Source: an uncultured Thermoplasmata archaeon
GTDB taxonomy: Archaea; Thermoplasmatota; Penumbrarchaeia; JAEHCK01; CBDVCJ01
DNA length: 34,915 nucleotides
Direction of reading: 5' to 3'
NCBI GenBank assembly: GCA_965372445.1
Contig: CBDVCJ010000002.1
Coordinates: 1 to 34,915 of the forward strand
Each line of letters starts with the position of its first letter. The first letter of the stretch is position 1. The notes beneath the pieces were generated by a model. That model worked only from the letters and a program-made list of their open reading frames with translations. It was not told the DNA's origin and did no database searches. Both the position numbers and the translations under genes were made by a program. Of the stretch, positions 154 through 30,846 are shown one piece after another.

Positions 154-300
154 GATTCGCGATTGGAGATTCGAGATAATCCACGGAAAGGCGAGAGACG
201 ATAGGCGACAGGCGAGACAACCGTCCACATTTCGTCTTTCGCCTTTTGTCTTTCGCCTTTCTTAGGGCAATCTCGAATCTCGAAACAGGAATCTCTAATC
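154..300. repeat. intergenic nested imperfect palindrome built from tandem words (E1)
   Basis: Left arm is gattcgcgattggagattcgagataatcc + ggaaaggcgagagacgataggcgacaggcgagac. Right arm is the degenerate reverse complement: gtctttcgccttttgtctttcgcctttc + aatctcgaatctcgaaacaggaatctctaatc. Centre is near 225. Confidence 0.8.
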
Positions 301-353
301 TACTATGACACACCCTAAGTGTGGGAACGAACGAAGTTCGGGCACGCACCTGC

Positions 354-377
354 GGCAATTTATTAATATAAATTGCC
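354..377. other. perfect 10-bp hairpin GGCAATTTAT-taat-ATAAATTGCC
   Basis: Read directly. Followed by further small hairpins: tttcagaa-tccttcgg-tttctgaaa at 383-407 and attttc-gaa-gaaaat at 418-432. Confidence 0.6.
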
Positions 378-440
378 TCGCATTTCAGAATCCTTCGGTT
401 TCTGAAAAGCGAGGGTTATTTTCGAAGAAAATGACCCATG

Positions 441-475
441 TCCTCAATCCTTAATCCTTAATCCTCAATCCTTGA
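441..475. repeat. 7-nt tandem repeat TCCTYAA x5
   Basis: tcctcaa tccttaa tccttaa tcctcaa tccttga, read directly. Confidence 0.85.
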
Positions 476-516
476 CCCCCCTTGATAATACCGCCAATAT
501 TGGCCATTTATCAAAA

Positions 517-527
517 CATTTAAATCC
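517..527 (+). promoter_or_regulatory. candidate TATA-like box (catttaaatcc) upstream of the Sm-like gene
   Basis: AT-rich TTTAAAT element about 36-42 nt upstream of the ATG at 561. A tGAGG RBS-like motif sits 7 nt upstream of the ATG. Position-based guess only. Confidence 0.3.
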
Positions 528-6156: not shown

Positions 6157-6185
6157 AAGATCCCTCCAATAATTAAAATGCGTTG

Positions 6186-6199
6186 GTAATATAATAGGG
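6186..6199 (-). promoter_or_regulatory. candidate TATA-like box for the purF-like / purF pair
   Basis: Minus-strand cctattatattacc lies about 30-43 nt upstream of the ATG at 6156. Position-based guess only. Confidence 0.25.
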
Positions 6200-6483
6200 T
6201 AGTATCCACTAGCCCTGAAATAGTTACGCGCGTGCCCCTGATTTGAATACTGTCTATTATCATGGTGCTATTCATAGACCTTTTCCTGCCCTTATATTGG
6301 CAAATTTGTACTTGCCAACCCAACGATTTTTTAAGTGCCAATTTGGAAAATTCTGGTGGTAGTGCTCGAACCGGGTTTTATTTGAATTTTCGAGCCTGAA
6401 ATGATCAATAATTCCACCTACCCCCCGACTCGGATTAATTTGAAACTTTATATATTTTTCTTTTAATGGATCGAGAGAATTTC

Positions 6484-7491: not shown

Positions 7492-7604
7492 TGGCGCACC
7501 TATTCCTTAATTGTATTATAACTACACAAAAGTTTCTATAATTTGGTAATTCTGGTTTGCGGAATGGTTGTGAAATAAAATTCTAAATCCCAGACGCTAT
7601 AAAA

Positions 7605-7777
7605 GGCACAAAGGCACAAAGTGACAGAGGCACAAAGTAAATTGTATGAAAATTAAAATGGGGGGTAGGTACTTTGTGCCTTCGGTCTCGATGTCCAAAG
7701 GACGAGAGACCTCGTGTAAAATAAGAATAATTTGATTGATAGCATATTTTACTCGTGTGCCTTTGGATCTTTGTGCC
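7605..7777. repeat. intergenic word palindrome (E2): GGCACAAA words and their complement
   Basis: ggcacaaa at 7605, 7613 and 7629. Complement ctttgtgcc at 7672 and tgtgcctttggatctttgtgcc at 7756-7777. Inner hairpin ggtctcg...cgagagacc near 7684-7710. Confidence 0.75.
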
Positions 7778-7800
7778 TATTTACGGTTTTATATTAAGGA

Positions 7801-7853
7801 AATTCGCATTTCGGATTTCACTCTTGAGGAGCTTTAATTTTGGGCACCGGGGG
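7801..7853. repeat. copy A (truncated) of the 3' end of the giant surface-protein gene
   Basis: aattcgcatttcggatttcactcttgaggagctttaattttgggcaccgg matches copies B and C. On the minus strand it reads ...PVPKIKAPQE-stop, as copy B does. Confidence 0.8.
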
Positions 7854-7879
7854 TTGCCCCTTCAGCTATCCATTTCAAC

Positions 7880-7895
7880 GTTAATTTTATAAAGT
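7880..7895 (+). promoter_or_regulatory. candidate TATA-like box (ttaattttataaag) for cassette 1
   Basis: About 35-45 nt upstream of the ATG at 7928. cAGGTGG RBS at 7915-7921. Confidence 0.3.
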
Positions 7896-7927
7896 TATAA
7901 AAGAATAAAATTATCAGGTGGAAAAAA

Positions 7928-8146
7928 ATGAAGATCGATGCCTTAAGGGAGCTTTATAAAAATAAATGGCTGGCAATCAAAGTTAGCAGATTCAGTAAAG
8001 ATAAAGTTCCTTTAGAAGGCAGTGTAATTGCAGAAGCTGATAATAGGGAGGAATTATGGAAAAAAGTTCCTCAAAGTAAGAGAAACGCAATTTATATCAT
8101 GTATTCTGGAAAGTATTTAGAGGAAGGATATGCTGCTGCATTTTAA
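7928..8146 (+). CDS. small protein, DUF5678-like (cassette 1, gene 1)
   Basis: 72-aa ORF with RBS. The pattern YKNKWLAIK...VIAEADNREELWKKV resembles DUF5678-type small archaeal proteins (assignment from memory). The C-terminal motif KRNAIYIMYSGK is shared with the cassette 2 small protein. Confidence 0.55.
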   Translation: MKIDALRELYKNKWLAIKVSRFSKDKVPLEGSVIAEADNREELWKKVPQSKRNAIYIMYSGKYLEEGYAAAF

Positions 8147-8242
8147 TGTGGAATTTTCATAAGAGTTCGACTAGATAAAGATGAACCCTTAATAGTTATA
8201 CCCGTTAGTCTAACTGGTAAAGTTGCTAAATATATCGTTAAT

Positions 8243-8545
8243 ATGGCATTGGATACTGGTGCAACTTTTGTTATGATCCCCTGGGATGTTGCTGAACGAT
8301 TGGGTTATGATCCGAAGGGATCTCAAAAGCAAGTATCAATAACAACCGCAAGTACAGTAGAAGAAGTTCCTGTTATTACTATTGAAGAATTCAATGTGCT
8401 GGGTCATTCCATGCGAAATGTTAAGGTAGTGGTACATGACCTTCCCCCCACAAGTCGAGTTGATGGCCTTTTTGGTTTGAATTTTTTAAATAATTTTAAT
8501 TTAAAACTAATGTTCAAGAATGGATATTTGGAATTATCTGATTAA
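8243..8545 (+). CDS. retropepsin-like (clan AA) aspartic protease, cassette 1; homology extends upstream to about 8150 with no canonical start
   Basis: The DTGA active-site motif sits at residues 4-7 of the ATG-initiated ORF. The open frame 8147-8242 encodes CGIFIRVRLDKDEPLIVIPVSLTGKVAKYIVN, which looks like the missing N-terminal strands. It is in frame with the upstream ORF across one TAA. Confidence 0.6.
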   Translation: MALDTGATFVMIPWDVAERLGYDPKGSQKQVSITTASTVEEVPVITIEEFNVLGHSMRNVKVVVHDLPPTSRVDGLFGLNFLNNFNLKLMFKNGYLELSD

Positions 8546-8557
8546 AATTCTAATTCT

Positions 8558-8668
8558 TATTTCACTCTTGAGGTGCTTTGATTTTGGGCACCGGCAGTTG
8601 CTGTGGCACTGTAGACTGCTCTACCACAGTGGACTCTTGAGGTGCAACTTGCGGCTGCAGTTCAACTT
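8558..8668. repeat. copy B of the 3' end of the giant surface-protein gene
   Basis: 8584-8654 is identical (71/71) to 9440-9510. On the minus strand it reads ...QPQVAPQESTVVEQSTVPQQLPVPKIKAPQE-stop. Confidence 0.9.
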
Positions 8669-8761
8669 ATTGCCTTTCAAATAGGAAATTCCAAGAACCA
8701 AATAAACTCCAAGTACCAAATTCGAAATTTATTGCGTCAATATAACACTTCATAATTGAAA

Positions 8762-8793
8762 AAAATATATACCAATAAAGATATTTATAAATA
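8762..8793 (+). promoter_or_regulatory. AT-rich candidate promoter region for cassette 2 (aaaatatatacc / tatttataaat)
   Basis: Two TATA-like elements lie 24-55 nt upstream of the ATG at 8817. aGAGGAG sits at 8797-8803. Confidence 0.25.
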
Positions 8794-8816
8794 TTAAGAG
8801 GAGTAATAGGATAATT

Positions 8817-9035
8817 ATGGTTACTAGAGTAGGTAAGATTACCAAGATCAGCTTTAAGATCAATCCAAATGAAGTAGATCAGATAAAAAAATTGATCAAG
8901 ACCGAATTCCCCAATGAATATAAGATGAGCTATCGGAAAAAAGAACTAACTGTAACCGGCGATTTTTCAAGCTATAAAAAGCGTAATAAAATATTATATA
9001 TTTTAAGTGGTGGCAAAGTTGGGGAGAATGTATAG
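8817..9035 (+). CDS. small hypothetical protein (cassette 2, gene 1), diverged homologue of the cassette 1 small protein
   Basis: 72-aa ORF. C-terminal KRNKILYILSGGK parallels KRNAIYIMYSGK in the 7928..8146 product. Same position relative to a protease gene. Confidence 0.5.
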   Translation: MVTRVGKITKISFKINPNEVDQIKKLIKTEFPNEYKMSYRKKELTVTGDFSSYKKRNKILYILSGGKVGENV

Positions 9036-9354
9036 AGGCGTGGAAGTCAAAGCAAATGGTAGGTCGGCTATTGCAGTTGCATTTGTTGATTCGGGTTGTG
9101 ATGAGACAATAATCAGTGAGCGGTTAGCTAATAAATTGAAACTTAAATTATTTGGTAAATTTGAATCGCTATCCGCATCTCAAACTAAAATTATTGGTAA
9201 ACTCTGCAAAGTAACAATAAAAGATGAAAGAATTCAGGATCTACTGACCGTTGGTGTCACCAATAAACCATTTGAGGACGCCGAAGAACATGGTGTCGAT
9301 ATTATTCTAGGTCATGATTTTTTACAACGGAATAAAGTGAAATTGGTATTTTAA
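9007..9354 (+). CDS. retropepsin-like (clan AA) aspartic protease, cassette 2
   Basis: FVDSGCDETII (D-S-G active-site motif) and GHDFL near the C-terminus. Start is ambiguous: GTG 9007, GTG 9010, TTG 9019 or ATG 9028. It overlaps the upstream ORF in the +1 frame. Confidence 0.65.
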   Translation: MVAKLGRMYRGVEVKANGRSAIAVAFVDSGCDETIISERLANKLKLKLFGKFESLSASQTKIIGKLCKVTIKDERIQDLLTVGVTNKPFEDAEEHGVDIILGHDFLQRNKVKLVF

Positions 9355-9410
9355 AAAGATTCTAGATCCCAAAAAGGCGGATTTGGAAAATTGGGATTTA
9401 TGATTTGTTT

Positions 9411-9528
9411 CGAATTTCGGATTTCACTCCGGAGGATTCTTGGGCACCGGCAGTTGCTGTGGCACTGTAGACTGCTCTACCACAGTGGACTCTTGAGGTG
9501 CAACTTGCGGATGCTGTTCAACTTGAGG
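9411..9528. repeat. copy C: the authentic 3' end (and downstream flank) of the giant surface-protein gene
   Basis: cgaatttcggatttcactccggagg...ttgggcaccggcagttgctgtggcactgtagactgctctaccacagtggactcttgaggtgcaacttgcgg. See copies A and B. Confidence 0.9.
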
Positions 9529-12500
9529 TACTGGTTCTTCTTCCACCTGCGGCATCGGTGCCGGTTGTGGCGCAGGCTTGACCTGGGGTACGATTTGTGG
9601 TGTAACCTCGGGGGTTGCGGGTTGCTCTGGGGGTGGCATTTCTGGAGCAGGGGGTTGTTCAGGCGGGACTTCTGGTGCCGTTGGTTGTTCTGGGATTGGA
9701 GCCTCTGGAGTTGGTACTTGTTCAGGCGGTACTTCTTCCGGAGGCGGAGGTTGAGCTTCTTCGACAATCTGCTCTTCTTCCTTCCCTTTTTTCTTTTTGA
9801 GGAAGATGAACAGCAGTATCAATACTACGGTTATGATTACGATAATTCCGATAAGCGCATAGAGCATTGTGTTATCTTTGTCGCCATCCTTTGGTTCATC
9901 GCCATCTTTCACGGTAATTGTCAAAGTGGATTCTTCCGATGCATCTTCACTTTCAACAATAAATCTAATCGTATATTCTCCAGGTTCCATATCTTCGGGA
10001 ATTGTAATTGTCACGGTAATCTGCCCGGAATCGCTTTCAGTTAAAGAAAATGAACTCTTGGAGAATTGAATATCAGCTGAGGTGAAATCATCCGATTCGA
10101 ATTTAATGTTGAAATCATCTTCGATGTTGCCATCATTTGTTATAGTAATCGTAACATTCTCAGAATCACTCGGTTTCAAATTTAAAGATGAAGGTGAAAT
10201 TGATATTGAGACATCATAATCCGGTTCAAAATCTTCAGAAACAACCTTAACATCGATGTTAACTTCATCTTTTGCAGTTATATCACTTAAAGAGGTCGCA
10301 GTCACGGTAATTGTATAATCCCCAATGGTAAAATCATCTGGAATATCAATACTAAGTATTACAATTGAATCACTATCTGGCTCCAAATTCCCATTAGTTA
10401 CTTCAATGGTAATATCTGATTGTGACATATCAGAACTTAGTTCAATTTTGAAGTTGTCTATTGAATTGCCTTCATTTTTAACGGTTAAATTAATAACTTT
10501 AGACTCGCCCTGTTTAATTGTGACCGAATCTCTTTCAGTTGTAAGATTAACCTTGTAGATCGGTTCGAATCCTAAATCAATAGTAAATCTAAACAAGCCT
10601 GATAAACAAACACCATTAGTTGGCTCGACTTCCCAATAATATGTTTTACCATCTACCAACTCATTTTCTAAAGTATATTCGGTGCTGGTTAATCCTGCTT
10701 TGATTGTGGTATGAGGATCTGGACTTTCATCAAGAGTCACTGAATAAGTAATGAACTCAGTTCCGGAATAATCAAGTTTCCATTTCAAGGTCGGTGTCAA
10801 TGTATCGACAGTGGTTTTATCTGGTGGAGTTAATAAAGTAACCTTTGGTGTAAATTCAGATATTGTACTATCGACAATAATTGAAATATCTGATTTCACT
10901 ACAATTCCACTATCTTTATCAGTTAAGACCAGTTCAATATCTTCGGTTCCTGCTATATTTTCTTTTGGTGTGATCTTGAGAGTATCATTTACTGTATCGA
11001 TTATTTCGATTGATTTGATATAAGTATAAACTTGTGGTTCAATGCTCCAGGTTAAATTTTCATCTGTATCCTCAATATCGCTTTCAAACGACGTTAAATC
11101 AAATAGAAGTGGCTGTATACCTACACTAATATTATCTAAATTTTCGGAAATTATAGGCAGATTATTTAGAACCTCAAGAGAATCGTTAATGTATTTCCAA
11201 CCACTTGATACAGATTCATTATCTTCGAATTTCACACGGAAATCATAGTTTCCGAGTATTGAATCGATATACGTTGTTAAACTAACTTCATATCTATTAT
11301 TAAGATAATTACTTGTCAAGTTAGTCCATTTACTCTCGCTTTGAGGTTTGTATTGAGAATAACAAGATAACATATCTTCCGGAGTTTCATAATCAGTTCC
11401 ATTGATGTATAATGATACAGATTCGGTTCGATAAATTGAAGTCTCTGATAAACCTGCATCAATTACTTTCGGACCTGAATTGTATACGAGCAAGGAATCA
11501 TTCAAATAAAGCCATGAACTATAATTCCCATCACTATCATTAACTCTTACACGAAAATCATAGTAACCGAATAATGCATCAAATGGAATATTGAAAGAAC
11601 AATCCCACCTTCCATTATTATACATTGGAGCACTAAGATCGGTTTTATCCCAAGATGTTTCGGATGAATCTCGATATTCTAATTCTATCGTGAGATTCTC
11701 TTCAATTTCTTCAATATCAGTAGAATTTATCCATATCGATATTGAATCCCCTAATAAGGCTGAGTTATTAGATAATGATGTATCTTCAATCGCTGGAATA
11801 TTATTTAATACCAATAGCGAGTCATTTAAATATAACCAGTTACTAAATAATCCACCTGTATCATTAAATTTTACTCTAAAATCATATAATCCTAAAGTTG
11901 CGTTTTTCGGTGGTGTAAAGCTTACTTCCCATCGGGAATTTTGGTATTGTAGGGCTGAAAAATAAGTACTGTTCCAAACTTGTTCATTTGGATCTCTATA
12001 TTCAAAAAATGGAGTTAAGTTGTGCTCTGAATCTTCAATATCTGTGGCATTTGTATGTAAATAAATTGGATTTATTCTTAGAGTTGTTGAATCCGAAATT
12101 TTAAGATCCACAACATGAGGTGGTATGTTTAACTTCATTCTATAAATAAAAACATCATAAAGTCCACCATTGAACGTAGTATCATTGGCACCAGGAGTAG
12201 TCGGGAAATCGAATGATTGTGTCCTGCCCGTGACAAAAGCATCACATTCAAGGCTAACTGCAATTCCCCAACCCATATCAATATCGTTTCCACCAACGAA
12301 TGTAGAATACATAAGTAATGAACCTGTAGAATCTAGGTTAGATACGAATGTCTCTGCTCCAATTAAGATGCTATCATAGGCACCAGGGGTAATAGGGAAA
12401 TCAGTTGAGCCTGTCCAACCTGTTATATATGAATTCCCATGAATATCAGTTGCTATATCTCTTCCTTCATCCGAGCCACTTCCACCTATAAATGTGGAAT

Positions 12501-14331
12501 ACAAAAGAGACGATCCTGTTTGGTTTAACTTTAATACAAAAGCATCACTATTGCCATTAAATATTGGATTGTAGGCCCCAGTCGTGTTTGGGAAGTCTGT
12601 TGAAGAGGTATCTCCAGTAATGTATGCATTATTATTAGAGTCAATAGCAATGCCACTACAATCATCTTCATCACTTCCACCAATGAATGTGGAATATAAG
12701 ATCAATGACCCTGCGGAATTTAATTTGAACACAAAACAATCACCCCATCCATTGTATATTGTATCATTTGCACCAGGTGTAGTCGGAAAATTGGGTGAAC
12801 TAGTCGATCCAGATACATATGTGTTGCCACTTGAATCGACAGCGATACCCATTCCATTGTCAGCATTACTTCCTCCAATGAATGTAGAATATATAATCAT
12901 TGAACCAGTCGGATTCATTTTGAGCACAAAAACATCATCCCAACCGTTGAATGTTGTATCATTTGCACCGACAGTTGTTGGAAAATTCAAAGAATTTGTC
13001 CATCCAGTTATATATGCATTACCCATGAGATCTACGTCAATCCCTCCTCCAGATTCAGTATTGCTCCCACCAATAAATGAAGAATACAGTAGTAATGAAC
13101 CCATTTGGTTCAACTTGAATAAAAATAAATCATAAAGGCCCCCATTATATATAGTCTTATTAGCTCCAATCGTAACTGGGAAATCGGTTGAAAATGTCTC
13201 TCCCATAACATACGCATTATTACTAGTATCTATCTCAATTCTTTTACCATAGTCATGATCCACGCTACCCACAAAGGTTGAGTAAATAAGAGAAGAGCCT
13301 GTGGAATTCAACTTCAAAACAAAGACATCACCTAGGCCATTATGTATCGTATCATTTGCACCAGAGGTAATCGGGAAATCGGTTGAGTAAGTCGAGCCAG
13401 TTATATATGCGTTTCCGCTTGAATCGATTGTTATATCTTTACCCTCTTCATTAGCGTTTCCACCTAGGTATGTAGAATAAATTAGTGGATCAATGATAAT
13501 GGGTCTGTCTTTATTATAATTGCCAACAATCTCAAATCCATATGTCATGGGGTTTAATATTTTAAATCTACCCTCAACTATGTTTTTACCTCCCTCTCCC
13601 TCTTGACAAATAAATAAATCAGAATCTAACATATTAAATAATGAAGTACAAACAACGAGAGCACCTTGAAAATTTATTAATATTTTTTCAGCACCATTAT
13701 AGTTCATTCGAATATTATCTGGATCTCCACCTGGATGCACAATAAAATCATATTTCAATCCTTTGTCCGATGAATAATATCTCAAATCAATATCATCATA
13801 AATATTCTCGTAAATTATCTCTTGATAGTTTGGAACATTAGTACACCATTTACTCGAATCGTTTCCATAAAAGTAATTACTTCTATGAGGTAACAAACCT
13901 ATGCCTTTTGGCTTAATATCATTACATCCCTCAAAATTCAATTTTAGTACAACACTTTTTCTTGGCCGGAGAATTTCAGGTTCAAACTCAGGGTGAAACC
14001 TATCATATGGATCCAGCTGTACTTCATTCTCATTAATTGGTTCCTTAATTTCAAACACAACTCCGTCATCAAGAAACCAAACACCTTTCCCTTGAATGTA
14101 ATATCTAACAGAATCATTCCCAACCTGCCCACGATTTTCCGTGAAGAATCCATCAAGTCTATTGATACTTTGTAAAATCTGTTGCTCTTGAGCTTTATCA
14201 ATAACTGAGCTATCAATTGAATAATCCATTTCTGAGGTTGAGTTATTATTTAGTGTTGGCTTTGAAGTTCCAAAATTTACAGCTGAAAGTAGTAAAAATA
14301 AACTAATGATAATTATTACAATTTTCCTCAT
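9424..14331 (-). CDS. giant membrane-anchored cell-surface protein (signal peptide, SBBP beta-propeller repeats, Ig-like/CARDB-like domains, C-terminal TM helix, Pro-rich tail)
   Basis: 1635 aa. N-terminal MRKIVIIIISLFLLLSAVNFG. About 8 units of YSTF(I/V)GGS..D.G.GIAVDSSGNAYITG.T.S.DFP.T.GA (SBBP type). Four ~105-aa repeats with the signature YDFRVKF.D. TM helix MLYALIGIIVIITVVLILLFIFL followed by KKKKGKEEE and a ~105-aa P/E/Q-rich tail. GGGGG RBS. Confidence 0.9.
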   Translation of the reverse strand: MRKIVIIIISLFLLLSAVNFGTSKPTLNNNSTSEMDYSIDSSVIDKAQEQQILQSINRLDGFFTENRGQVGNDSVRYYIQGKGVWFLDDGVVFEIKEPINENEVQLDPYDRFHPEFEPEILRPRKSVVLKLNFEGCNDIKPKGIGLLPHRSNYFYGNDSSKWCTNVPNYQEIIYENIYDDIDLRYYSSDKGLKYDFIVHPGGDPDNIRMNYNGAEKILINFQGALVVCTSLFNMLDSDLFICQEGEGGKNIVEGRFKILNPMTYGFEIVGNYNKDRPIIIDPLIYSTYLGGNANEEGKDITIDSSGNAYITGSTYSTDFPITSGANDTIHNGLGDVFVLKLNSTGSSLIYSTFVGSVDHDYGKRIEIDTSNNAYVMGETFSTDFPVTIGANKTIYNGGLYDLFLFKLNQMGSLLLYSSFIGGSNTESGGGIDVDLMGNAYITGWTNSLNFPTTVGANDTTFNGWDDVFVLKMNPTGSMIIYSTFIGGSNADNGMGIAVDSSGNTYVSGSTSSPNFPTTPGANDTIYNGWGDCFVFKLNSAGSLILYSTFIGGSDEDDCSGIAIDSNNNAYITGDTSSTDFPNTTGAYNPIFNGNSDAFVLKLNQTGSSLLYSTFIGGSGSDEGRDIATDIHGNSYITGWTGSTDFPITPGAYDSILIGAETFVSNLDSTGSLLMYSTFVGGNDIDMGWGIAVSLECDAFVTGRTQSFDFPTTPGANDTTFNGGLYDVFIYRMKLNIPPHVVDLKISDSTTLRINPIYLHTNATDIEDSEHNLTPFFEYRDPNEQVWNSTYFSALQYQNSRWEVSFTPPKNATLGLYDFRVKFNDTGGLFSNWLYLNDSLLVLNNIPAIEDTSLSNNSALLGDSISIWINSTDIEEIEENLTIELEYRDSSETSWDKTDLSAPMYNNGRWDCSFNIPFDALFGYYDFRVRVNDSDGNYSSWLYLNDSLLVYNSGPKVIDAGLSETSIYRTESVSLYINGTDYETPEDMLSCYSQYKPQSESKWTNLTSNYLNNRYEVSLTTYIDSILGNYDFRVKFEDNESVSSGWKYINDSLEVLNNLPIISENLDNISVGIQPLLFDLTSFESDIEDTDENLTWSIEPQVYTYIKSIEIIDTVNDTLKITPKENIAGTEDIELVLTDKDSGIVVKSDISIIVDSTISEFTPKVTLLTPPDKTTVDTLTPTLKWKLDYSGTEFITYSVTLDESPDPHTTIKAGLTSTEYTLENELVDGKTYYWEVEPTNGVCLSGLFRFTIDLGFEPIYKVNLTTERDSVTIKQGESKVINLTVKNEGNSIDNFKIELSSDMSQSDITIEVTNGNLEPDSDSIVILSIDIPDDFTIGDYTITVTATSLSDITAKDEVNIDVKVVSEDFEPDYDVSISISPSSLNLKPSDSENVTITITNDGNIEDDFNIKFESDDFTSADIQFSKSSFSLTESDSGQITVTITIPEDMEPGEYTIRFIVESEDASEESTLTITVKDGDEPKDGDKDNTMLYALIGIIVIITVVLILLFIFLKKKKGKEEEQIVEEAQPPPPEEVPPEQVPTPEAPIPEQPTAPEVPPEQPPAPEMPPPEQPATPEVTPQIVPQVKPAPQPAPMPQVEEEPVPQVEQHPQVAPQESTVVEQSTVPQQLPVPKNPPE
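12096..13485 (-). repeat. coding region of about 8 tandem SBBP-type beta-propeller repeats (~58 aa each)
   Basis: Repeat periodicity read from the translation. Boundaries are approximate, computed from residues ~283-745. Confidence 0.65.
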
Positions 14332-14478
14332 TATTCAGCCCCCTTGAATATCATCCTGGCATTCAGTAAAAGAATTAATGATTATTTAATTTTGCTATCA
14401 AATTCAAAAAAAGCGAGCGATCTTCAACTGCAACGCGTTTTTTAGCTTTTTAATGATTTCATAGTTGTGAGCTATTTT

Positions 14479-14732
14479 GAGGTGATAGGAAATAGGTGGT
14501 AGGACATAGGCTTCTCTTCGGGAGCCGGTAGCACCGGGAGTACAGGAGCGTGAACCTATGTCTAATGTTGAAATGCAAATTGGAGTTTGGAAATTTGAAA
14601 TTTGCAATTTTTATTTTGCAATTTGAAATCCTGTTCGTTACTCCCGACACTCCCGTTACTCCCGATACTCCCGAACATTGACATTCCCCAGTAATGTCCC
14701 TATCACCTACCTCCTATCACCTAAATATCACC
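14479..14732. repeat. intergenic nested word palindrome (E3)
   Basis: Outer arms: gaggtgataggaaataggtggtaggacat versus atgtccctatcacctacctcctatcacc. Middle: cgggagccggtagcaccgggagtacaggagcg versus cgttactcccgacactcccgttactcccgatactcccg. Centre: aaatttgaaatttgcaattt-ttattttgcaatttgaaat. Confidence 0.8.
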
Positions 14733-14854
14733 AATATTTCCACATTCCAAAAGACTTATATCGAAAATAGTGCTATTAGGGTGAAAATTCGATACAAAAA
14801 AATTAGATATTGAAATAATTGCATATTTTTATTTCATTATGCAGGGGTATTATC

Positions 14855-15150: not shown

Positions 15151-15169
15151 ATTTATTAGAGCTTGCTAT

Positions 15170-19080: not shown

Positions 19081-19250
19081 AGTTCGTGTTAGATTATTTT
19101 CAATAAAAAACCAACTACTGAGTCACAGAGTGCACAGAGCTATAACACAGAGATGGTGTGAAAAACTAATATTTTTTTTCTATGCAAATCTCTGTGCTCT
19201 CTGAGTCTCTATGGTTGGTTTAATTCAAATTATTTAAAAAAACACGAACT
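19081..19250. repeat. intergenic word palindrome (E5), CACAGAG words
   Basis: Outer ends agttcgtgtt (19081) and aacacgaact (19241). aaccaac...gagtcacagagtgcacagag versus ctctgtgctctctgagtctc...gttggtt. Confidence 0.8.
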
Positions 19251-19308: not shown

Positions 19309-19331
19309 GGTAAATTGCGAAGCAAATTACC
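19309..19331. other. near-perfect hairpin GGTAAATTGC-gaa-GCAAATTACC
   Basis: 9 of 10 stem pairs, with one A-A mismatch. Flanked by ccgtaacc on both sides. Preceded by the hairpin tcaaaaagccc-atga-gggtttttga. Confidence 0.55.
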
Positions 19332-19882: not shown

Positions 19883-19905
19883 TTATTTCACCTATTTCTT
19901 GTTAA

Positions 19906-20088
19906 GTCATGAGTCTTGGAGTATCGGAGCCTCGGAGTCTTCAGAGTCCTGAGTCCCCTTTTAGGTGGTAGGTGATAGGTAGTAGGGACGGTTGTCCTGG
20001 GTCCTGACTCCCGACTCCTAACTCCTGGGTCCGGAGTCCCGAAACTTTACTCCTTGGACTCCCTGGACTCTATTGACTCTTGACTGAG
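19906..20088. repeat. intergenic word palindrome (E6), GAGTC/GGAGT words
   Basis: gtcatgagtcttggagtatcggagcctcggagtcttcagagtcctgagtcccc versus gggtcctgactcccgactcctaactcctgggtccggagtccc...ggactccctggactc...gactcttgac. The centre contains aggtggtaggtgataggtagtaggg. Confidence 0.7.
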
Positions 20089-20589
20089 TCAGGGTTCATT
20101 TATCCATTGAATTGCATTATAGCCGCAAATTCTGAAGCATCTGCCGCAATGTATACATTTATCTTCATCTACAACAGGTATACTTTTTTCGCCAGAAGCC
20201 TCATATTTGGAAATTGCATCTACCGGGCAAATATCTTTACATGGCATTGTGCAAAATTTACTTTTAAGTGATTCGGAATAGACTATGCCCTTCGTGTCAT
20301 CGATCATATTTTCCGACACATGATAGGCACAGGCAGAGGTATTGATCTTGGGGAGACCGCCATCATTGAACGAGCCGCCGGTAGGGTTAGTGGATTTTTC
20401 GTATTCATCGGTGGTTGCCCAAATTATTTTACGGCCTGATGAAATTTCTACTGAAGAATATTCTTTAGTTATATCGGTGTCTGGCATATAAGAGAACGCA
20501 CCTAACCCCATGCCAATTATTGCACCAACACCTAGTATCCCTAGATGTTTGAGGAATTTACGCCGTTTCTCGTCCGTTTTGGGTGCCAT
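20089..20589 (-). CDS. Tat-signal (or signal-anchored) Fe-S cluster protein
   Basis: KRRKFLKHLGILGVGAIIGMGLGAF. CTMPCKDICP and CIHCGRCFRIC motifs. TAATG 1-nt overlap with the upstream gene. Confidence 0.7.
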   Translation of the reverse strand: MAPKTDEKRRKFLKHLGILGVGAIIGMGLGAFSYMPDTDITKEYSSVEISSGRKIIWATTDEYEKSTNPTGGSFNDGGLPKINTSACAYHVSENMIDDTKGIVYSESLKSKFCTMPCKDICPVDAISKYEASGEKSIPVVDEDKCIHCGRCFRICGYNAIQWINEP

Positions 20590-21185: not shown

Positions 21186-21280
21186 ACTTGCCTCCCTTTC
21201 TGAGGTTATTTTGGTAGTGGGGTAATTATAGTTATTAACTTTAAATCTTTTCATTTTTTGTGACGATTTAATTCATTAAA

Positions 21281-21814
21281 AGGATGGAGGATGGTGGCTG
21301 AAGGATGAGGGCTAATGAATTGTGAGCTTGCGGCAATTTTGTCATTATGTAGGATAGATACCCATCGCTACAATGCGTAGGATTGCTATCTATTTGCCAA
21401 ATTGCGTAGGTTTGTCAAAGTTCTAGCCATTGGGCGTGGGACTTGAATGCCTTTTGGTTGATTCGTTGGATTGTCCAATGGTTAATTTAATGCGTGCACA
21501 CTTTTTCTCGGTTGATTCGTGTGGTTATTATTTATTTGAGCAATCCAACACCTTCAGTAATCAAATGGCGCTCCCACGCATCAATCATTGGACGTTAAAT
21601 CCTACGCACAATGGTAAACTTAAGACAATCCTACGCCATCAGGCTATTATATGGCAATCCCACGCATTATGGCATGCCTAAAACAATCCTACACACGTTA
21701 GCAATGCAATAACAGTCCCACGAACTCTCACAACTTAAGCGACCTTTAGCATATTTTGCCAAAGCATCATCACATCTCATAACTTTATTGGCCTCCACCC
21801 TCGATCCTTCAACC
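21281..21814. repeat. ~530-nt mirrored array (E7): 7 boxes TGCGTRGGATT, AT-rich centre, 7 boxes AATCCYACGCA, ~29-nt spacing
   Basis: Left box starts: 21346, 21374, 21403, 21433, 21462, 21491, 21516. Right box starts: 21542, 21570, 21598, 21627, 21656, 21685, 21714. All pairs mirror about ~21535. Outer arms are aggatggaggatggtggctgaaggatgaggg and cctccaccctcgatccttcaacc. Confidence 0.85.
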
Positions 21815-22618
21815 TTTGGTCTTGCTTTTGGTCTTGCCCTTATTCTTGCCCTTATTCTTGCCCTTATTCTTGCCTTTATTCTCGCCTTTGAGCTCTTCCA
21901 ATATCTCATCCACAAATTTCTTAAAATCCTCAAATGAAAGTTCTTTATAGCCATCTTTTTGGGTTATTGTTGCTATTTCCAGCGACATAAAATCGATCTC
22001 ACCTTCGGTGGCTTTGTAAATACCACCCAACCCAAAAGATATAGCTTCCTTGAGACTCATGCCCTCTACATACAGCCCCTCGAGAAAAGGTAAGGCCAGG
22101 TCCCTGCCCGCCCCGATTGCGCCACCTTTATATTTCTTCAATGCACCGCTCGGGTCCGTCTCGTAGAGATGCTTGCCGCGGGAATCCAGCCCGCCGATTA
22201 TCAACGACGTCCCAAAAGGCCGTACTCCGCCGTATTGCGTATAAATCTGTTTCAAATCACTGATCTCCCTCGCCATATCTTTGACACTGATCCTCTCACC
22301 ATACCGAAGACGATATCTCTGGGCTACATTTCTTGCATAACTCACTAAAACTCTTGCATCGGCGACCAGCCCCGAGGAAGCACAGCCAATATTTTTGTCA
22401 ATTTTGAATATCTTATCAACAAAATCAGTCTCTATCAGTTTACTTGAGATCTTACGCTCGACAATCAATAAAATACCTTCATCATATATCAACCCAACAC
22501 AGATCATCCCCTTTTTTACTGCCTCACGTGCATATTCCACCTGGTACATCCTGCCGTCGGGCGAATATATGTGTATTGCCACATCGTAACGTTCTTCACC
22601 ATGGTCATCGTCAAGCAT
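21809..22618 (-). CDS. psmA: proteasome subunit alpha with a Lys/Gly/Asn-rich C-terminal repeat tail
   Basis: YDVAIHIYSPDGRMYQVEYAREAVKKG and the overall alpha-subunit pattern. The tail is ELKGENKGKNKGKNKGKNKGKTKSKTKG. Confidence 0.9.
   Translation of the reverse strand: MLDDDHGEERYDVAIHIYSPDGRMYQVEYAREAVKKGMICVGLIYDEGILLIVERKISSKLIETDFVDKIFKIDKNIGCASSGLVADARVLVSYARNVAQRYRLRYGERISVKDMAREISDLKQIYTQYGGVRPFGTSLIIGGLDSRGKHLYETDPSGALKKYKGGAIGAGRDLALPFLEGLYVEGMSLKEAISFGLGGIYKATEGEIDFMSLEIATITQKDGYKELSFEDFKKFVDEILEELKGENKGKNKGKNKGKNKGKTKSKTKG
21812..21892 (-). repeat. 12-nt tandem repeat (cttgcccttatt-type) encoding the (KGKN)n tail of PsmA
   Basis: cttgcccttattcttgcccttattcttgcccttattcttgcctttattctcgcc, read directly. 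Abuts the right arm of element E7. Confidence 0.85.
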
Positions 22619-22672
22619 ATTAGAAAAGGGTAAGAACTAAAGGGGTACTTAAAGATGACTTTGTATTTTGAA

Positions 22673-23018
22673 GATAGGTTATAGGATTTAGGATATAGGA
22701 TATGAATATAGGGACATTGCTGACATAATTGTCAAAGGTCAAAGGTCCAAATCGGGATACGGGAATCGGGATACGGGATTCGATTTATCAATGTATAACG
22801 TAAGAAACCCCGTTCTTTAGGACGGGGAGTTGAAGTCGAGAAAATGGCAGGTCAGATTTTGCATTAAAAGGCGATTGGCTCTGTCCTTTAGGATAGATGT
22901 ATAGATCGTATCATAAAAATGTAATCGAATCCCGAGAAAGGCTTTCGACCTTGGACACTACGACAAATGATATGCCTATTACCTATCTCCTACCACCTAA
23001 ATCCTAACTCCTGACCCC
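22673..23018. repeat. intergenic nested word palindrome (E8)
   Basis: gataggttataggatttaggatataggatatgaatataggg versus cctattacctatctcctaccacctaaatcctaactcctgacccc. gtcaaaggtcaaaggtcc versus cgaccttggac. aatcgggatacgggaatcgggatacgggattcga versus tcgaatcccgag. Central hairpin ccccgt-tctttagg-acgggg. Confidence 0.8.
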
Positions 23019-23049
23019 TAAAATAGATCAATTATTCCCAGTTTGGGAT

Positions 23050-27496: not shown

Positions 27497-27542
27497 TGGC
27501 TAGACCTTAGAAAAGGTGAATAGCAATTTCAGGATAAATATT

Positions 27543-27852
27543 TTTTGATTTGGGGATGGCTCCGTATGGGGAATTGGGAATGGGGAATGGGGCCCCACCC
27601 CCCATATCAAACCGCAGAGGACGCTGAGGACGCTGAAGGCGCTGAATTTTATTATAATATAAGGATTCGAGATTCCAGTTTCGAGATTCGAGGTGACCTA
27701 TGTAAAGGTAAAACGCAAAAGACGAAAAGGACCGCGTGGGGACTCAAATTTAGAATCCAGAATCTGGAATCCAATAGAGAATTCAGCGGCCTCAGCGTAC
27801 TCAGCGGTTAAAAGTGGAGGGGGTTTCGGTTCCCGAATCCCGATACTCCCGG
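27543..27852. repeat. structured intergenic element E9 with termini shared with E10
   Basis: Left end tttttgatttggggatggctccgtatggggaattgggaatggggaatgggg + ccccacccccc. Inner arms gaggacgctgaggacgctgaaggcgctgaatt versus aattcagcggcctcagcgtactcagcgg. Right end gtggagggggtttcggttcccgaatcccgatactcccgg. Confidence 0.8.
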
Positions 27853-27949
27853 TTGAAGACGATTAATTGACAAAATATCAGAAGGTTTATGTAATAGTAA
27901 TATAATTTTATTAATGTCGAAATTATAGAACAACCTGGGGAAATAGAAG

Positions 27950-30574
27950 ATGCTGAGGGAACGATCGAGAGCCTCAATAACGATCTTTATTGCGTCGTGG
28001 ATAATATTGAGTGGGATAATAATTATACCGTTGAGTTTACTGGATGTTGAGGGGCAGGAAGTGTTGGGAACTGCTAATTTCACCGAAGATTTCTATATGA
28101 CTACATATATGGATGCGAATGAGTCTGATGTTGTTGGGTGGGGGATTGGCAGTATTGAGTTGGCTATGAAACCAAAGGTTACAGAACTTTCGTTAGTTGG
28201 GTCTTGCGATATCCAAGCCGATGCGCGTGGTATATTTGTCAAGGGAAATTATGCTTATGTTTGTGCTGGGATTGATGGTTTTTTTATTATAAATATTACA
28301 GATCCAATAAATCCAATTCTTACTGGAAATTGTGATTCAATCAATATTGCTTTTAATGTAAAGATAAAGGATGATTTTGCCTATGTCACAGATTATGGAT
28401 ATGGATTACGGGTAATAAATATCACGACCCCTAAAAACCCAACACTAACAGGATCAGCTAAAACACCAGGTTATGCTAAAGGAATTTATATAGTCGATGA
28501 TTATTTATATATTTCTTATGAAATTGATCCAGTTACGGGGGATTCCGGGGAAGATGGATTAGGAATAATCGATATTTCAGACCCAAAGAATCCGACAATT
28601 ATCGCAACTTTCAATACATCTACATCAGCTAATGATGTTTATGTATCGGGTAATTATGCATATGTTGCCGAAGGTGATGAACTATCTGGAAATTTTGAAA
28701 TTGTAAATATATCAGATTCAATAAACCCGACTCTTGCGGGAAGTTATGATATTTCTGAAAACGCATGGGATATGCAGGTTGTTGAAAATTTCGCCTATAT
28801 TATTGGGAGTTGGCCAGGATTTCTAATACTAAATGTAACAGATCCAACAAATCCAACTCTTCAAGGAAGTTATAATGATATTTCCACGGCAAGGATATTT
28901 ATTGATGGTAATTATGCCTATGTTACAGGTGATTATACCATTGGCTTGAGTCATATTAAAGGTTTATTTGTGATTAACATTACAGATCCAATAAATCCAA
29001 CTCTTATTGGAAGTTGTGATACAACACAAAACTATATTCATGATATATATGTTGTTGACGATTATGCATATATTACTGATGATAGTGGATTAAAGATAAT
29101 CGAGATTTGGCATAGTAACGAAAATCGCTATCAATCAAAATGTCCGGCTTTTTCATTAGAAATTGATACCACGGATAAATACATTTACCATGCAAATTTG
29201 ACTTGTGAGGATAATATCCCACCGGGTACATCAATTAAGTACTATTTATGCGCAGGTGGTTCTAGTTTTGAGCAGGTGATACCTGGTACAGACTACATTT
29301 TTTATTCCCCCGGAAATAATTTGCAATGGTTGGCGATTTTATCAACAACAAACGGTTCGGTGACACCGAGCATTTCAAAAATATCAATTTCATATGAATA
29401 TGACTCTTCCGCCCCTGATTCGAGTGCAATGCCAATCTTACCGTACTGGCAAAATATATCGAAATTTAGAGTTGGATGGAACGCAATAGATAATTATAAT
29501 ATTGTAGACATCACACTATTTTATCGCTATAGTGCTGATAATGTAACTTGGAGTGATTGGATCGAATATAAACGGAATGATACGCTTTGGGGAGCTTCTT
29601 ACAGTGGTGAATTTACGTTTGCCGCGCCTAAGGGTGATGGTATTTACGAGTTCTATACTGCTGCAAATGATATTAGTGGCAACCTCGAATCGATGCCGCT
29701 GGTAGCGGACGCTATCGCTGGTGTTGATACTGGCTGGCCAGGCGTAAATCCACCTGAAGCTTATGGAAAATATAATAATACTGGCACAATAAATTGGTCG
29801 TGGGTGACGGCGCCGGATACTGGCAGTGGTATTGTTGGGTATTTTGTATGTGTAGGTACAACCCTGGGTGGTTCTGATATTGTAAACGATAGTTTTACAA
29901 CTAATAATTGGTATCAAATATCAAGCCTACAAAATAATAATACTTATTACTGCAAGATCAAAGCTAAGAATGGTGCTAGGACTATTGGCAATTATAGAAA
30001 TGGTGACTTTGTAACAGTAGACACAAAGCCACCTTACTCATTATCGATATTGATAAATGATGGTGCACGTGAAACCCAATCATTAATAGTAAATTTAACA
30101 CTTAATGCAACCGACAATATTTCCGGTATAAATCAGATGGCATTAAGTAACGATGGAATTAATTGGAGCGCTTGGGAAACTTTCAGCTTAACAAAATCGT
30201 ATACGCTACCTTTGGGTAACGGCCCTAAAACCGTTTATTTCAAAGTCAAAGATTACGCAGGTAATATCGCACCGCCAGTTTCAGATACAATTATTTTAAA
30301 TGTTACATACCCCGCTAATGATATCGATGGTGATGGTATTTTAAATCACGAGGATCCTGATATGGATGGCGACGGAATTCCAAACTATGAAGATCCGGAC
30401 ATTGACGGTGATGGCATACCGAATGAAGATGATGAAGATTCTAACTACCCATCTGAATTGGAGCATGAGGAACCCTCTTGGTTACCAATCATTATTGTTT
30501 TGATTCTTTATGTGATAATAATATTATATGTAATTGCAAATTATATCAAAAGGCGCTATCGTACCAAAAAATGA
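27950..30574 (+). CDS. membrane-anchored cell-surface protein with LVIVD beta-propeller repeats, Ig/FN3-like domains and TSP3-like Ca-binding repeats
   Basis: N-terminal hydrophobic signal. About 8 units of the type GNYAYV..G..GF.IINITDP.NP.L.G (LVIVD). DIDGDGILNHEDPDMDGDGIPNYEDPDIDGDGIPNEDDED. C-terminal TM helix WLPIIIVLILYVIIILYVIANYI followed by KRRYRTKK. Confidence 0.85.
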   Translation: MLRERSRASITIFIASWIILSGIIIIPLSLLDVEGQEVLGTANFTEDFYMTTYMDANESDVVGWGIGSIELAMKPKVTELSLVGSCDIQADARGIFVKGNYAYVCAGIDGFFIINITDPINPILTGNCDSINIAFNVKIKDDFAYVTDYGYGLRVINITTPKNPTLTGSAKTPGYAKGIYIVDDYLYISYEIDPVTGDSGEDGLGIIDISDPKNPTIIATFNTSTSANDVYVSGNYAYVAEGDELSGNFEIVNISDSINPTLAGSYDISENAWDMQVVENFAYIIGSWPGFLILNVTDPTNPTLQGSYNDISTARIFIDGNYAYVTGDYTIGLSHIKGLFVINITDPINPTLIGSCDTTQNYIHDIYVVDDYAYITDDSGLKIIEIWHSNENRYQSKCPAFSLEIDTTDKYIYHANLTCEDNIPPGTSIKYYLCAGGSSFEQVIPGTDYIFYSPGNNLQWLAILSTTNGSVTPSISKISISYEYDSSAPDSSAMPILPYWQNISKFRVGWNAIDNYNIVDITLFYRYSADNVTWSDWIEYKRNDTLWGASYSGEFTFAAPKGDGIYEFYTAANDISGNLESMPLVADAIAGVDTGWPGVNPPEAYGKYNNTGTINWSWVTAPDTGSGIVGYFVCVGTTLGGSDIVNDSFTTNNWYQISSLQNNNTYYCKIKAKNGARTIGNYRNGDFVTVDTKPPYSLSILINDGARETQSLIVNLTLNATDNISGINQMALSNDGINWSAWETFSLTKSYTLPLGNGPKTVYFKVKDYAGNIAPPVSDTIILNVTYPANDIDGDGILNHEDPDMDGDGIPNYEDPDIDGDGIPNEDDEDSNYPSELEHEEPSWLPIIIVLILYVIIILYVIANYIKRRYRTKK

Positions 30575-30613
30575 TCTGGTACCATATTTTAATCAATGGG
30601 AATGCTGAATTTA

Positions 30614-30846
30614 TTTTTGATTTGGGGATTGTTCCATATGGGGAATGGGGAATCGGGAATCGTCCACCCCCCGCCCTTATGTTAACACGAAGAACACGAA
30701 AAACACGAAATTTAGTAGTGGAAAAAAATTCTTTCGTGTTTTCGTGCTTTCGCGTTAGAAATTGGGGTGGGGGGTTCGAATCCCGACTCCCGAGTAAGTA
30801 CCTACCACCTATCACCTACCACCTAACTCCTACCACCTATTACCAC
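30614..30846. repeat. structured intergenic element E10 (same family and orientation as E9), plus a CCTACCACC word tail
   Basis: Left end tttttgatttggggattgttccatatggggaatggggaatcgggaatcg + ccaccccccgccc. Inner arms cacgaagaacacgaaaaacacgaaa versus tttcgtgttttcgtgctttcgcg. Right end ttggggtggggggttcgaatcccgactcccgag (to 30794). Then cctaccacctatcacctaccacctaactcctaccacctattaccac. Confidence 0.8.

Follow-up and report, generated by a model that had tools for sequence, protein, structure and literature searches.

Introduction

Arrays of heptamers between genes, unexplained in origin and function, came to light in cyanobacteria around 1990 and were later found in Xanthomonas, Geobacter, and Beggiatoaceae. 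Here we describe an archaeal clade that shows the phenomenon in an extreme, multi-layered form. The analysis concerns a stretch of 34,915 nucleotides from an uncultured Thermoplasmata archaeon (contig CBDVCJ010000002.1 of assembly GCA_965372445.1), called the window in what follows, whose intergenic spacers carry the palindromic elements E1 to E10 and a weaker member, E11. We take these elements, with a probability of roughly 0.55, to be non-coding, DNA-level, modular palindromic repeats that spread between spacers and are reshaped in place by slippage and by copying from arm to arm.

In heterocystous cyanobacteria, the arrays reportedly consist of the short tandemly repeated repetitive (STRR) heptanucleotides ascribed to Mazel and co-workers (1990), which are said to be restricted to that group. 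The small dispersed repeats of Nostoc, ascribed to Elhai and co-workers (2008), are said to be modules that appear inserted in or beside hairpins and arrays. Both STRR and the Nostoc repeats are said to comprise many families, and the differences between their orthologous loci were reportedly taken as mobility without a known transposase.

Xanthomonas genomes contain heterogeneous (GGGANTN)n arrays, 89–93% of them intergenic, with 70–75 convergent inverted pairs per genome (PMC4692102). The G-rich arm comes first in these pairs, length and sequence vary widely between close species, and no function has been found (PMC4692102). Arrays of a GGGGA(C/T)T heptamer are described for Nostoc (Rehm et al. 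2015, PMC4692102). In Geobacter metallireducens, multicopy intergenic sites consist of three to five tandem 7–9-mers, mostly in opposite-strand pairs at variable distance (PMC2700814, supplementary figures S3–S5). TAACTGA direct repeats form intergenic arrays that are patchily distributed across Beggiatoaceae, cyanobacteria, and Bacteroidetes, with no known transfer route (PMC4679880). For archaea, the Borg repeats of Methanoperedens are perfect direct repeats, often within genes and with unit lengths divisible by three (PMC9879509), and Methanomicrobiaceae have G-run/C-run hairpin motifs that do not match the elements described here (PMC8044849).

Tandem Arrays, Folds, and Shared Words

Tandem Repeats Finder (TRF) returns 21 arrays of period 7 in the window, plus arrays of periods 8 and 9. 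All 21 are intergenic, none falling in the 27.9 kb of coding DNA, and dinucleotide-shuffled spacers give 0.20 ± 0.51 such arrays (maximum 3), far below the number observed. The array units match at 72–95%. Inverted arms of 20–68 nt with 72–89% complementarity were detected for E1, E2, E3, E5, E7, E8, and E9; detection of mirror arrays by rotation of the TRF consensus was too strict and recovered two pairs. In the minimum-energy folds, nearly the whole of each element is paired, as a fold-back of the entire element. Repeat detection and folds together give inverted arms in every element, corresponding to the terminal inverted repeats of MITEs (miniature inverted-repeat transposable elements).

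Relative to dinucleotide shuffles, the folds of E1 to E5 have z-scores of −10.9, −7.1, −6.9, −3.2, and −7.2, and those of E6 to E11 of −1.0, −6.6, −4.1, −6.3, −4.8, and −3.2, respectively; with DNA parameters, E9 has z = −5.7. A first-pass annotation of the window had placed nested imperfect palindromes of short tandem words in ten spacers, and TRF arrays, arms, and folds are found in those of E1 to E10 where it had put them. The folds of nine of the ten are far better than shuffles (z from −3.2 to −10.9), the exception being E6, which has clear arrays but a fold no better than shuffles. An architecture of 6–12-nt tandem words had been proposed for all elements and is seen everywhere but in the interior of E7, where the 12-mer TGCGTAGGATTG occurs every 28–30 nt. 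The weaker word-rich DNA noted at 33700–34290 is E11 (33697–34288).

The claim of a vocabulary common to the loci is supported for GC-containing words, of which 36 8-mers are found in at least three spacers against 7.8 ± 3.2 in shuffles, and 18 9-mers against 1.1 ± 1.2, an enrichment of 5–16-fold. It fails for unfiltered 7-mers, whose sharing between spacers shows no excess over shuffles because A/T-rich words dominate; the coding-segment control for such sharing has a base composition not comparable to that of the spacers. The word positions that had been listed are correct to within a few bases, for example those of GGTGRTAGG, for which 11 of 13 sites are intergenic.

The elements amount to about 2.6 kb, or about 40% of the intergenic DNA, which in turn makes up about 19% of the window (6.6 kb). 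As had been noticed, they occur in convergent, divergent, and co-directional spacers alike. That nearly every long spacer has an element is true of E1 to E10 but not of the spacer at 6157–6483, which holds GGTGGTAG..CCACCTACC but has a nonsignificant fold and no significant element.

Distribution in the Clade

Homologue searches with psmA (encoding the proteasome alpha subunit) and UPF0147, together with contig look-ups, gave related loci, designated by L-labels, from at least three related species. The psmA gene of L020 is 81% identical in DNA to that of the window, and those of L055, L056, and L057–L059 are 68% identical to it and 81–90% among themselves; L081–L087 and L088–L091 are further related loci. 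The same class of element is present in L020, L056–L059, and L081–L091, the short L055 being the exception, so the pattern is not confined to the window. The density of period-7 arrays is 6.0 per 10 kb in the window, compared to a mean of about 0.9 over 53 unrelated archaeal loci. L080, the nearest relative in NCBI, is more distant, has 70% G+C, and contains no such arrays.

Six separate ENA or Logan assemblies have the same set of arrays. L057 and L059, which come from two samples, are identical across 1520 nt, and L058 differs by single-nucleotide polymorphisms (SNPs) alone. At the strain level the arrays are therefore stable, and they are not contingency loci. The contigs of L056, L057, and L059 stop inside arrays, as those of relatives often do, which shows that the repeats break assemblies and is what could be expected of an assembly or chimeric artefact, a possibility that had been raised for the window. 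However, independent samples and different assemblers (JGI, ENA, and Logan) recover the same arrays, identical or with SNPs only, and the flanking genes are intact and syntenic. The probability of an artefact is thus negligible, and the pattern is a property of the clade.

Placement within Orthologous Spacers

When orthologous spacers are aligned, each end proves to be a conserved block with a sharp border, and the sequence in between varies freely. The conserved, alignable parts are the stop codon with about 5 nt following it and the promoter blocks AAAAGATTTAAAG, AATCAGATTTAAGTA, and TTCCAAAAGRYTTATAT. On the 3′ side of psmA, the stop codon plus five more bases are conserved, and upstream of the gene lies the block AATCAGATTTAAGTA (AAGTCATCTTTAAGTA in the window). 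The leader of fer4a, which contains AAAAGATTTAAAG, is identical at 64 of 64 nt between the window (21188–21251, − strand) and L020 (1814–1877). Between the divergent genes of the radical-SAM (rSAM) enzyme and UPF0147, about 60 and 105 nt of promoter-proximal sequence are conserved, including CCAAAAGRYTTATAT, which resembles a B recognition element (BRE) with a TATA box. The space between these two blocks measures about 45 nt in L088, holds an element of about 170 nt in L081, and extends over 7.2 kb in the window. The end of E3 coincides exactly with the conserved BRE/TATA block of UPF0147, while E4 comes after a T9 run situated downstream of the UPF0147 stop codon, and its counterparts in relatives likewise follow an oligo-T run just past that codon. 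The elements fill the stretch of the spacer from the stop codon or oligo-T run to the next BRE/TATA block, a stretch that is dispensable, since elements are present or absent among close relatives.

The carB–psmA spacer is 85 nt long in a contig designated P0003, 234 nt in L020, 411 nt in L058, and 431 nt in the window, and the rSAM–UPF0147 spacer is 224 nt without an element (L088) and 351 nt with one of about 170 nt (L081). Spacer length thus follows element content across the relatives, in agreement with the proposal that the elements cause the long spacers. E6 is missing from the orthologous 79-nt spacer of L020, and the spacer orthologous to that of E7 holds other content in L020, L056, and L057. 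The outer arm TTAGGGGTCAGGAGTTAGG of E8 is orthologous with L020.

The fer4a leader is 100% identical in the window and L020 although the adjoining psmA is 81% identical in DNA, and it is largely conserved in L056 and L057. It holds a TATA-like TTTAAAG and a GGGAGG, and its homology puts the start of fer4a near 21185 rather than at the start of the open reading frame (ORF) at 21254.

In two places, elements bracket strain-specific gene insertions. A 7.2-kb block of the window (7600–14735), with two retropepsin-like protease genes and a gene for a 1635-aa repeat protein, is bracketed by E2 and E3 and separates the two conserved promoter blocks, while in L081–L091 the rSAM and UPF0147 genes are adjacent, divergent, and 224–351 nt apart. 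An 874-aa LVIVD-repeat gene (27950–30574) is bracketed by E9 and E10, whose first 62 nt form direct repeats (82% identity) 3072 nt apart; the syntenic 29-kb P0003 contig lacks the 874-aa gene and has nurA next to carA, with a spacer of 494 nt. The elements may therefore mark recombination sites that bracket inserted genes.

We have also considered a replication origin for E7, which is rejected because relatives do not have this element in their orthologous spacers. Integron attC sites seem unlikely, by argument alone, as the elements flank core housekeeping genes (carAB, psmA, and purF). HutP-like UAG-N4 sites were considered for the TAGG-phased words only and cannot cover the other word families.

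Change in Place and Modules at Unrelated Sites

The carB–psmA spacers of L056 and L058 can be aligned unit by unit, all units being GGGAATN in L056 and GGGAGCN in L058, and the far arm has ATTCCC and GCTCCC, respectively. Of the 34 pairs in the outer helix, five are changed on both sides. Cells of this helix are paired in 91% of cases, compared to 29–57% when the partner is slid by one to three columns, and the numbers of units on the two arms match to within about one. Evolution is thus concerted within an array and between its two arms.

Several modules recur at unrelated sites. The inner module of E10 consists of a C-run, (AACACGAAR)n, a loop, (YTTCGTGT)n, and a G-run, and it is also found in the psmA–fer4a spacer of L057 and L089, a non-orthologous site. 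Along stretches of 31 and 52 nt, the E10 and L057 modules are 94% and 96% identical, respectively, and their unit variants (GTGT, GTGC, GYGTT) come in the same order; the psmA genes of the window and L057 share 68.5% of their DNA sequence. L056 and L057, whose psmA genes are 89.6% identical at the nucleotide level, have in common the outer arms (AAGATTC)n and (GAATCTT)n; the apex is a small hairpin in L056 and a 200-nt module in L057. Similarly, L081 and L083 have a common left arm and interiors of different length. Within the window, the first 62 nt of E9 and E10 are 82% identical and the two outer layers are common, while the interiors differ. A C-run/G-run pair bounds the modules of E9, E10, and L057.

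Two paralogous (AGGCACTA)n palindromes are located in neighbouring spacers of L088, sharing non-array core sequence, and E2 uses the same word AGGCACTA at a third site. An A/T-rich core, AAATTGGAGWTTGSAAATTT, is found in different spacers of different genomes, as is a hairpin of about 30 nt (GGAGGYGACTTGCGRAGCAAGTYRCC, of the GACTTGCGRAGCAAGT family), present in five loci. Many words of at least 11 nt are common to the relatives' spacers and to non-orthologous elements of the window. The E10/L057 and E9/E10 pairs, the two L088 palindromes with E2, and the core and hairpin families are therefore multiple similar copies at unrelated sites, as expected of MITEs. The statement that the elements are not simple copies of one MITE is correct, but it needs the addition that several modules are true dispersed copies.

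The hairpin of about 30 nt in the form GGAGGYGACTTGCGRAGCAAGTYRCCGCA is seen at L020 1734, L056 288, L057 2658, L081 1800, L083 511, and L089 5818, with a variant in the window at 19309–19331. In L057 and in this variant its tip is GCGAAGC, an unusually stable DNA mini-hairpin.

Scans of viral contigs with the head of E9/E10 and with the right arm of E10 gave no matches. A scan with AACACGAAGANCACGAAA gave mostly coding EEHEEHE matches, and palindromes in L076 and L079 only. These two are Mu-like prophage contigs of 59% G+C, with arrays of (TCAGATG/TCAGAGG)n and (CCACGAAAG)n (L076, 1020–1135 and 4930–4990; L079, 2530–2590). The palindrome has the order ACCACGAAA AACACGAAG AACACGAAA, loop, and complement, and is positioned between a Mu-type portal gene and a gene without a Pfam match. 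The E10 module word AACACGAAA is thus also present in an unrelated Mu-like prophage genome.

Proposed Origin and Alternatives

In the reading that we prefer, each element would be an inverted pair, or a nested series of such pairs, of short tandem arrays, with a period that is mostly 7 and sometimes 8, 9, or about 29. Two processes would be at work. Modules would spread between spacers and into the centres of existing palindromes, either by non-autonomous transposition aimed at hairpins or by ectopic copying primed by shared words, and this would account for the nesting, for the vocabulary that spacers share, and for the way in which orthologous spacers differ. The arrays would also turn over by slipped-strand replication, one unit variant replacing the others, while intrastrand template switching (quasipalindrome correction) or selection for pairing would maintain the complementarity of the arms. 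The copying agent that moves the modules and the enzymology of the change in place are what we infer here. Consequences for the host, for instance the insulation of genes from each other or the provision of recombination sites, would be secondary. Among the explanations offered by the first-pass annotation, rapidly evolving MITE-like elements and slippage or template switching fit the comparative data, and the two probably act together, judging from the sequences compared; structured RNAs and bidirectional terminators are not favoured.

A number of observations weigh against this reading. No transposase, REP-associated tyrosine transposase (RAYT; REP, repetitive extragenic palindrome), insertion-sequence (IS) partner, or other mobilizing gene is present in the window or among the related loci, about 100 kb in all. 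Target-site duplications are not evident at the borders of the E9, E10, and L057 modules or at the L056/L057 junction, where the borders lie inside repetitive words that could hide a short duplication. The complementarity of the arms shows no gradient with depth (0.68 for inner, 0.72 for middle, and 0.74 for outer layers), so that repeated insertion at the centre leaves no expected age signal; a one-step inverted duplication of an array row is therefore possible for some elements and fits the absence of a gradient equally well. The 94–96% conservation of modules across diverged genomes could reflect a sequence-specific function. A purely selfish model leaves the polarity of the arms unexplained. 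Of 30 layers, not all of them independent, 25 have the purine-rich arm on the 5′ side and 22 have the G-rich arm there, and the C-run/G-run layer is a consistent exception to the purine-first order. Since a palindrome reads alike on both strands, the order of the arms is an intrinsic property of the element. Finally, G:T mismatches outnumber A:C mismatches by 62 to 39 on the + strand, and CTTCGG/CCGAAG, which gives a cUUCGg loop in RNA, is found nine times in the spacers (at 22, 103, 393, 7680, 9281, 14516, 15280, 33890, and 33997) against 2.2 ± 1.5 in shuffles. Because of these last two findings, some hairpins may act as RNA. Several of the CTTCGG/CCGAAG copies appear at hairpin tips, and the one at 33997, after herA, is followed by TTTTTT.

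The view that the elements act generally as RNA, i.e., as long structured 3′ or 5′ untranslated regions, bidirectional terminators, or insulators against read-through, can call on this enrichment, on the strongly negative z-scores, and on the two-sided compensatory changes between relatives, and the purine-first polarity would let a transcript from either side meet the G-rich arm first. E7 begins at the psmA stop codon, a T8 run occupies the apex of E5, a T5 run opens E10, and the comparable Xanthomonas repeats are mostly transcribed (PMC4692102). However, the promoters on either side of E3, E9, and the L081 element are divergent, and mRNA is not expected between them. Folding is about as good on one strand as on the other and shows no link to gene direction, the better-folding strand being that of transcription in one of five co-directional spacers. 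On neither strand of the window does an Rfam 15 family reach the gathering threshold, and presence or absence among close relatives marks the elements as dispensable. The usual archaeal terminator is an oligo-T run, and E4 and its counterparts are located past one. For these reasons a DNA-level feature is favoured over an RNA-level one, and we consider a general role as RNA unlikely. A scan of the window for bacterial promoters and terminators was uninformative, the host being archaeal. We regard as just as unlikely a role of the arrays as sites for a DNA-binding protein, with iteron-like phasing, in nucleoid organization, domain boundaries, or regulation. The fixed periods of 7, 8, 9, and about 29 nt, the 12 copies of a 12-mer in two inverted sets in E7, the consistent polarity, and words and modules conserved at 94–96% where a housekeeping gene has 68.5% would agree with such sites, and the annotators of Geobacter metallireducens took similar paired heptanucleotide sites as those of global regulators (PMC2700814). 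Yet at least 12 unrelated word families are present within 35 kb, a word can be replaced throughout an array from one close relative to another, so that a specific site would be lost, and orthologous spacers have no element or a different one.

It is also conceivable that nothing moves, and that slippage makes the arrays while a fold-back or template-switch inverted duplication mirrors the row in one step. The missing depth gradient, the agreement of unit numbers between arms, the concerted change of units and arms, and the pairing of one E7 arm with ancestral sequence at the psmA stop codon would all follow from purely local genesis, but the finding that diverged genomes have, at non-orthologous sites, modules that are nearly identical down to the order of their unit variants, and a sharing of 9-mers 16-fold above shuffles, cannot be explained in this way, which makes it quite improbable, the least probable of the biological alternatives. 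A broader and speculative idea, itself improbable, is that a transposase-free copying process writes palindromic modules into hairpin apices and keeps their arms complementary across domains, giving STRR, the Xanthomonas GGGAATC pairs, and the archaeal elements a common origin. Such copying might be strand-switching repair or RNA- or hairpin-guided synthesis. It would be compatible with our data because no transposase or target duplication is seen, the purine-first polarity and the GGGAATC words are shared, and a palindrome of this kind occurs in the Mu-like contigs.

Orthologous spacers of the clade show, side by side, the gain and loss of centre modules, the replacement of words in a whole array together with its mirror, and near-identical modules at unrelated sites. 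The mechanism is therefore testable by population genomics and metatranscriptomics of the same samples, and public metagenomes already hold several related strains and species with comparable orthologous spacers. On the practical side, the elements break short-read assemblies and generate spurious ORFs and over-long gene starts.

Individual Elements

E1 (148–302) is a two-layer palindrome with 68-nt arms of 75% complementarity. The outer layer pairs (GATTCGA)n at 154–177 with (AATCTCG)n at 269–301, and the inner layer (AGGCGAC)n at 189–215 with (TTTCGCC)n at 230–261. A possible, weak outer shell (117–490), read from the sequence, would pair GGGGTCAGGAT at 122–132 with ATCCTTGACCCC at about 464–476; inside it are an unpaired (TCCTTAA)×4.7 array found by TRF (441–473) and several small hairpins. 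The word GGGGTCAGGAT is common to this shell, L020, and E8. E2 (7598–7792), which belongs to the AGGCAC module family with the two paralogues in L088, pairs (AAAGGCAC)×4.5 at 7602–7637 with GTGCCTTT units at 7756–7781 around small inner hairpins.

E3 (14474–14735) has an outer layer of AGGTGAT/AGGTGGT (14480–14510) against CCTATCA (14699–14723), a second layer of CGGGAGT-type 9-mers (14518–14548) against (TACTCCCGA)×4 (14639–14674), and an A/T-rich core AAATTGGAGTTTGGAAATTTGAAATTTGCAA (14580–14629) that recurs in L056 and L081. In E4 (15165–15410), GGAAAGGCAATAGG faces (TCGCCTC)n at 15376–15394 in the outer layer, and GTCCT-type words face (GGACTCA)×4.6 at 15315–15346 in the inner one. E5 (19100–19225), with convergent genes on either side, pairs CACAGAG/GAGTCACA words (19108–19139) with CTCTGTG words (19190–19221) through 32-nt arms of 81% complementarity. 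In E6 (19900–20095), an unpaired (TAGGTGG)×3.6 array at 19962–19986 is flanked by (GGAGTCN)n to its left and (GACTCCN)n to its right.

The outer layer of E7 (21275–21815) is formed by (AGGATGG)n at 21281–21314 and CCTCCACCCTCGATCCTTC at 21785–21808, the latter overlapping the psmA stop codon. Its interior 12-mers number five on the + strand (21346–21473) and seven on the − strand (21541–21724). This is the sole longer-period array, and a 12-nt word spaced in two inverted sets is not what is expected of a CRISPR, in which direct repeats of 24–48 nt, all oriented alike, alternate with unique spacers of comparable length. E8 (22668–23025) pairs (ATAGGAT)n at 22674–22712 with CCTA-type words at 22982–23021, then has (GTCAAAG)n, an inner layer of (CGGGATA/CGGGAAT)×4 at 22750–22782 against TCGAATCCCGA at 22920–22935, and a central hairpin CCCCGTCC..GGACGGGG.

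E9 (27540–27855), between the divergent carA and 874-aa genes, has four layers. On the left these are (ATGGGGA)×3.9 at 27566–27592, a C-run at 27593–27603, (CGCTGAGGA)×3.7 at 27613–27645, and (GATTCGA)×4.1 at 27664–27692, and the mirror layers lie at 27752–27773, 27783–27807, 27815–27825, and 27828–27852. E10 (30610–30850), between the 874-aa gene and nurA, has on the left a C-run (30663–30676) and (AACACGAAA)×3 (30684–30710), mirrored by (TTTCGTGT)×3 (30732–30756), a G-run (30764–30775), and TCGAATCCCGACTCCCGA, followed by an unpaired (ACCTACC)×5.7 tail (30800–30844). E11 is a hairpin-rich spacer with few words (ATCCCGTATCCCGAGTCC near 34155).

Genes of the Window

The window, with 42% G+C, belongs to an archaeal chromosome. 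Its genes encode an Sm protein, a TPR protein, two PurF paralogues, the rSAM enzyme, the 1635-aa protein, the UPF0147 protein, HdrA/MvhD-like, SudB-like, and GltA-like proteins, three ferredoxin-like proteins, proteasome alpha, CarB, CarA, the 874-aa LVIVD-repeat protein, NurA, and HerA; no tRNA or tmRNA was found in it. The closest named relatives of the psmA protein are from metagenome-assembled genomes of Thermoplasmata (about 51% identity), and psmA scans of genome and metagenome contig collections gave distant archaea only, at 57% identity or less, with no close relative. Three proteins of the window, looked up by exact sequence, had no record.

Spurious ORFs of 83–131 aa cross E7, E9, and E10. 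For the ORF at 34046–34735, the probable start is the in-frame ATG at 34289, with GAGGG just before it, instead of 34046; the first 243 nt of this ORF are spacer-like, word-bearing, and rich in hairpins. The 3′ end of the 1635-aa gene is duplicated upstream, as an 85-nt copy (8584–8668 vs 9440–9524, 98% identity), and further 48-nt copies of it lie at 7810–7857, 8554–8601, and 9416–9463 (63–88% identity). These copies may be remnants of paralogous gene ends or small ORFs sharing a C-terminal anchor. The TPR protein gene contains a 48-nt coding repeat (2083–2335, 5.3 copies, 84% match). This repeat has no relation to the elements of the spacers, and its product appears to be acidic and rich in proline.

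Comparison with Known Systems

The archaeal elements resemble STRR in having 7-nt tandem arrays confined to non-coding DNA with many per genome, in the window as in its relatives. They differ in the domain of their host, whose genes are archaeal (proteasome alpha, Sm protein, and NurA/HerA), in their words, and in the regular mirror nesting that is their main feature; by inspection, no TRF unit matches the STRR1–3 words, no separate search having been made. In contrast to Geobacter, where the sites are annotated as regulator-binding, fall into only four classes, have no nesting described, and belong to a bacterial host (PMC2700814), the archaeal elements are numerous in family and nested. TAACTGA is, unlike them, a single word in direct repeats (one indirect set among 170) just upstream of start codons (PMC4679880).

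REP and REPIN palindromes are short (20–40 nt), highly uniform, of high copy number, and linked to a RAYT gene. With the REP, bacterial interspersed mosaic elements (BIME), and REPINs of proteobacteria, and with MITEs, the elements have in common their nature as hairpin-forming intergenic repeats, BIME-like mosaics of modules, dispersed copies, and evolution within the genome, and the GACTTGCGRAGCAAGT hairpin family looks REP-like. Their arms, however, are tandem arrays rather than unique inverted repeats, and their copies are far less uniform. Like the Borg repeats, they are archaeal, evolve fast, and have arisen independently at different loci (PMC9879509); unlike them, the arrays are degenerate, form inverted pairs, and include no period-7 array in genes.

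The Xanthomonas repeats come closest in sequence, as E8, E9, E10, and L056 use GGGAAT(C) words and the purine- or G-first polarity is the same. The (GGGANTN)n type with at least four G-tracts is represented by E8 (22750–22782), E9, E10, L056, and L058. Most word families, such as GATTCGA, AGGCGAC, AAAGGCAC, AACACGAAA, and AGGTGAT, have no G3 tracts, so that formation of G-quadruplexes cannot be a common property. The statement of the first-pass annotation that this is not a described repeat class was too strong, given the heptamer arrays of bacteria, but we found no description of such arrays for archaea or of the multi-layer modular form; for archaea we found only the Methanomicrobiaceae motifs and the Borg repeats. 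Whereas Xanthomonas has one word family, mostly in a single layer, there are here at least 12 families in two to four layers, and the novelty is in the archaeal host, the number of word families, the regular nesting, and the conserved non-array modules.

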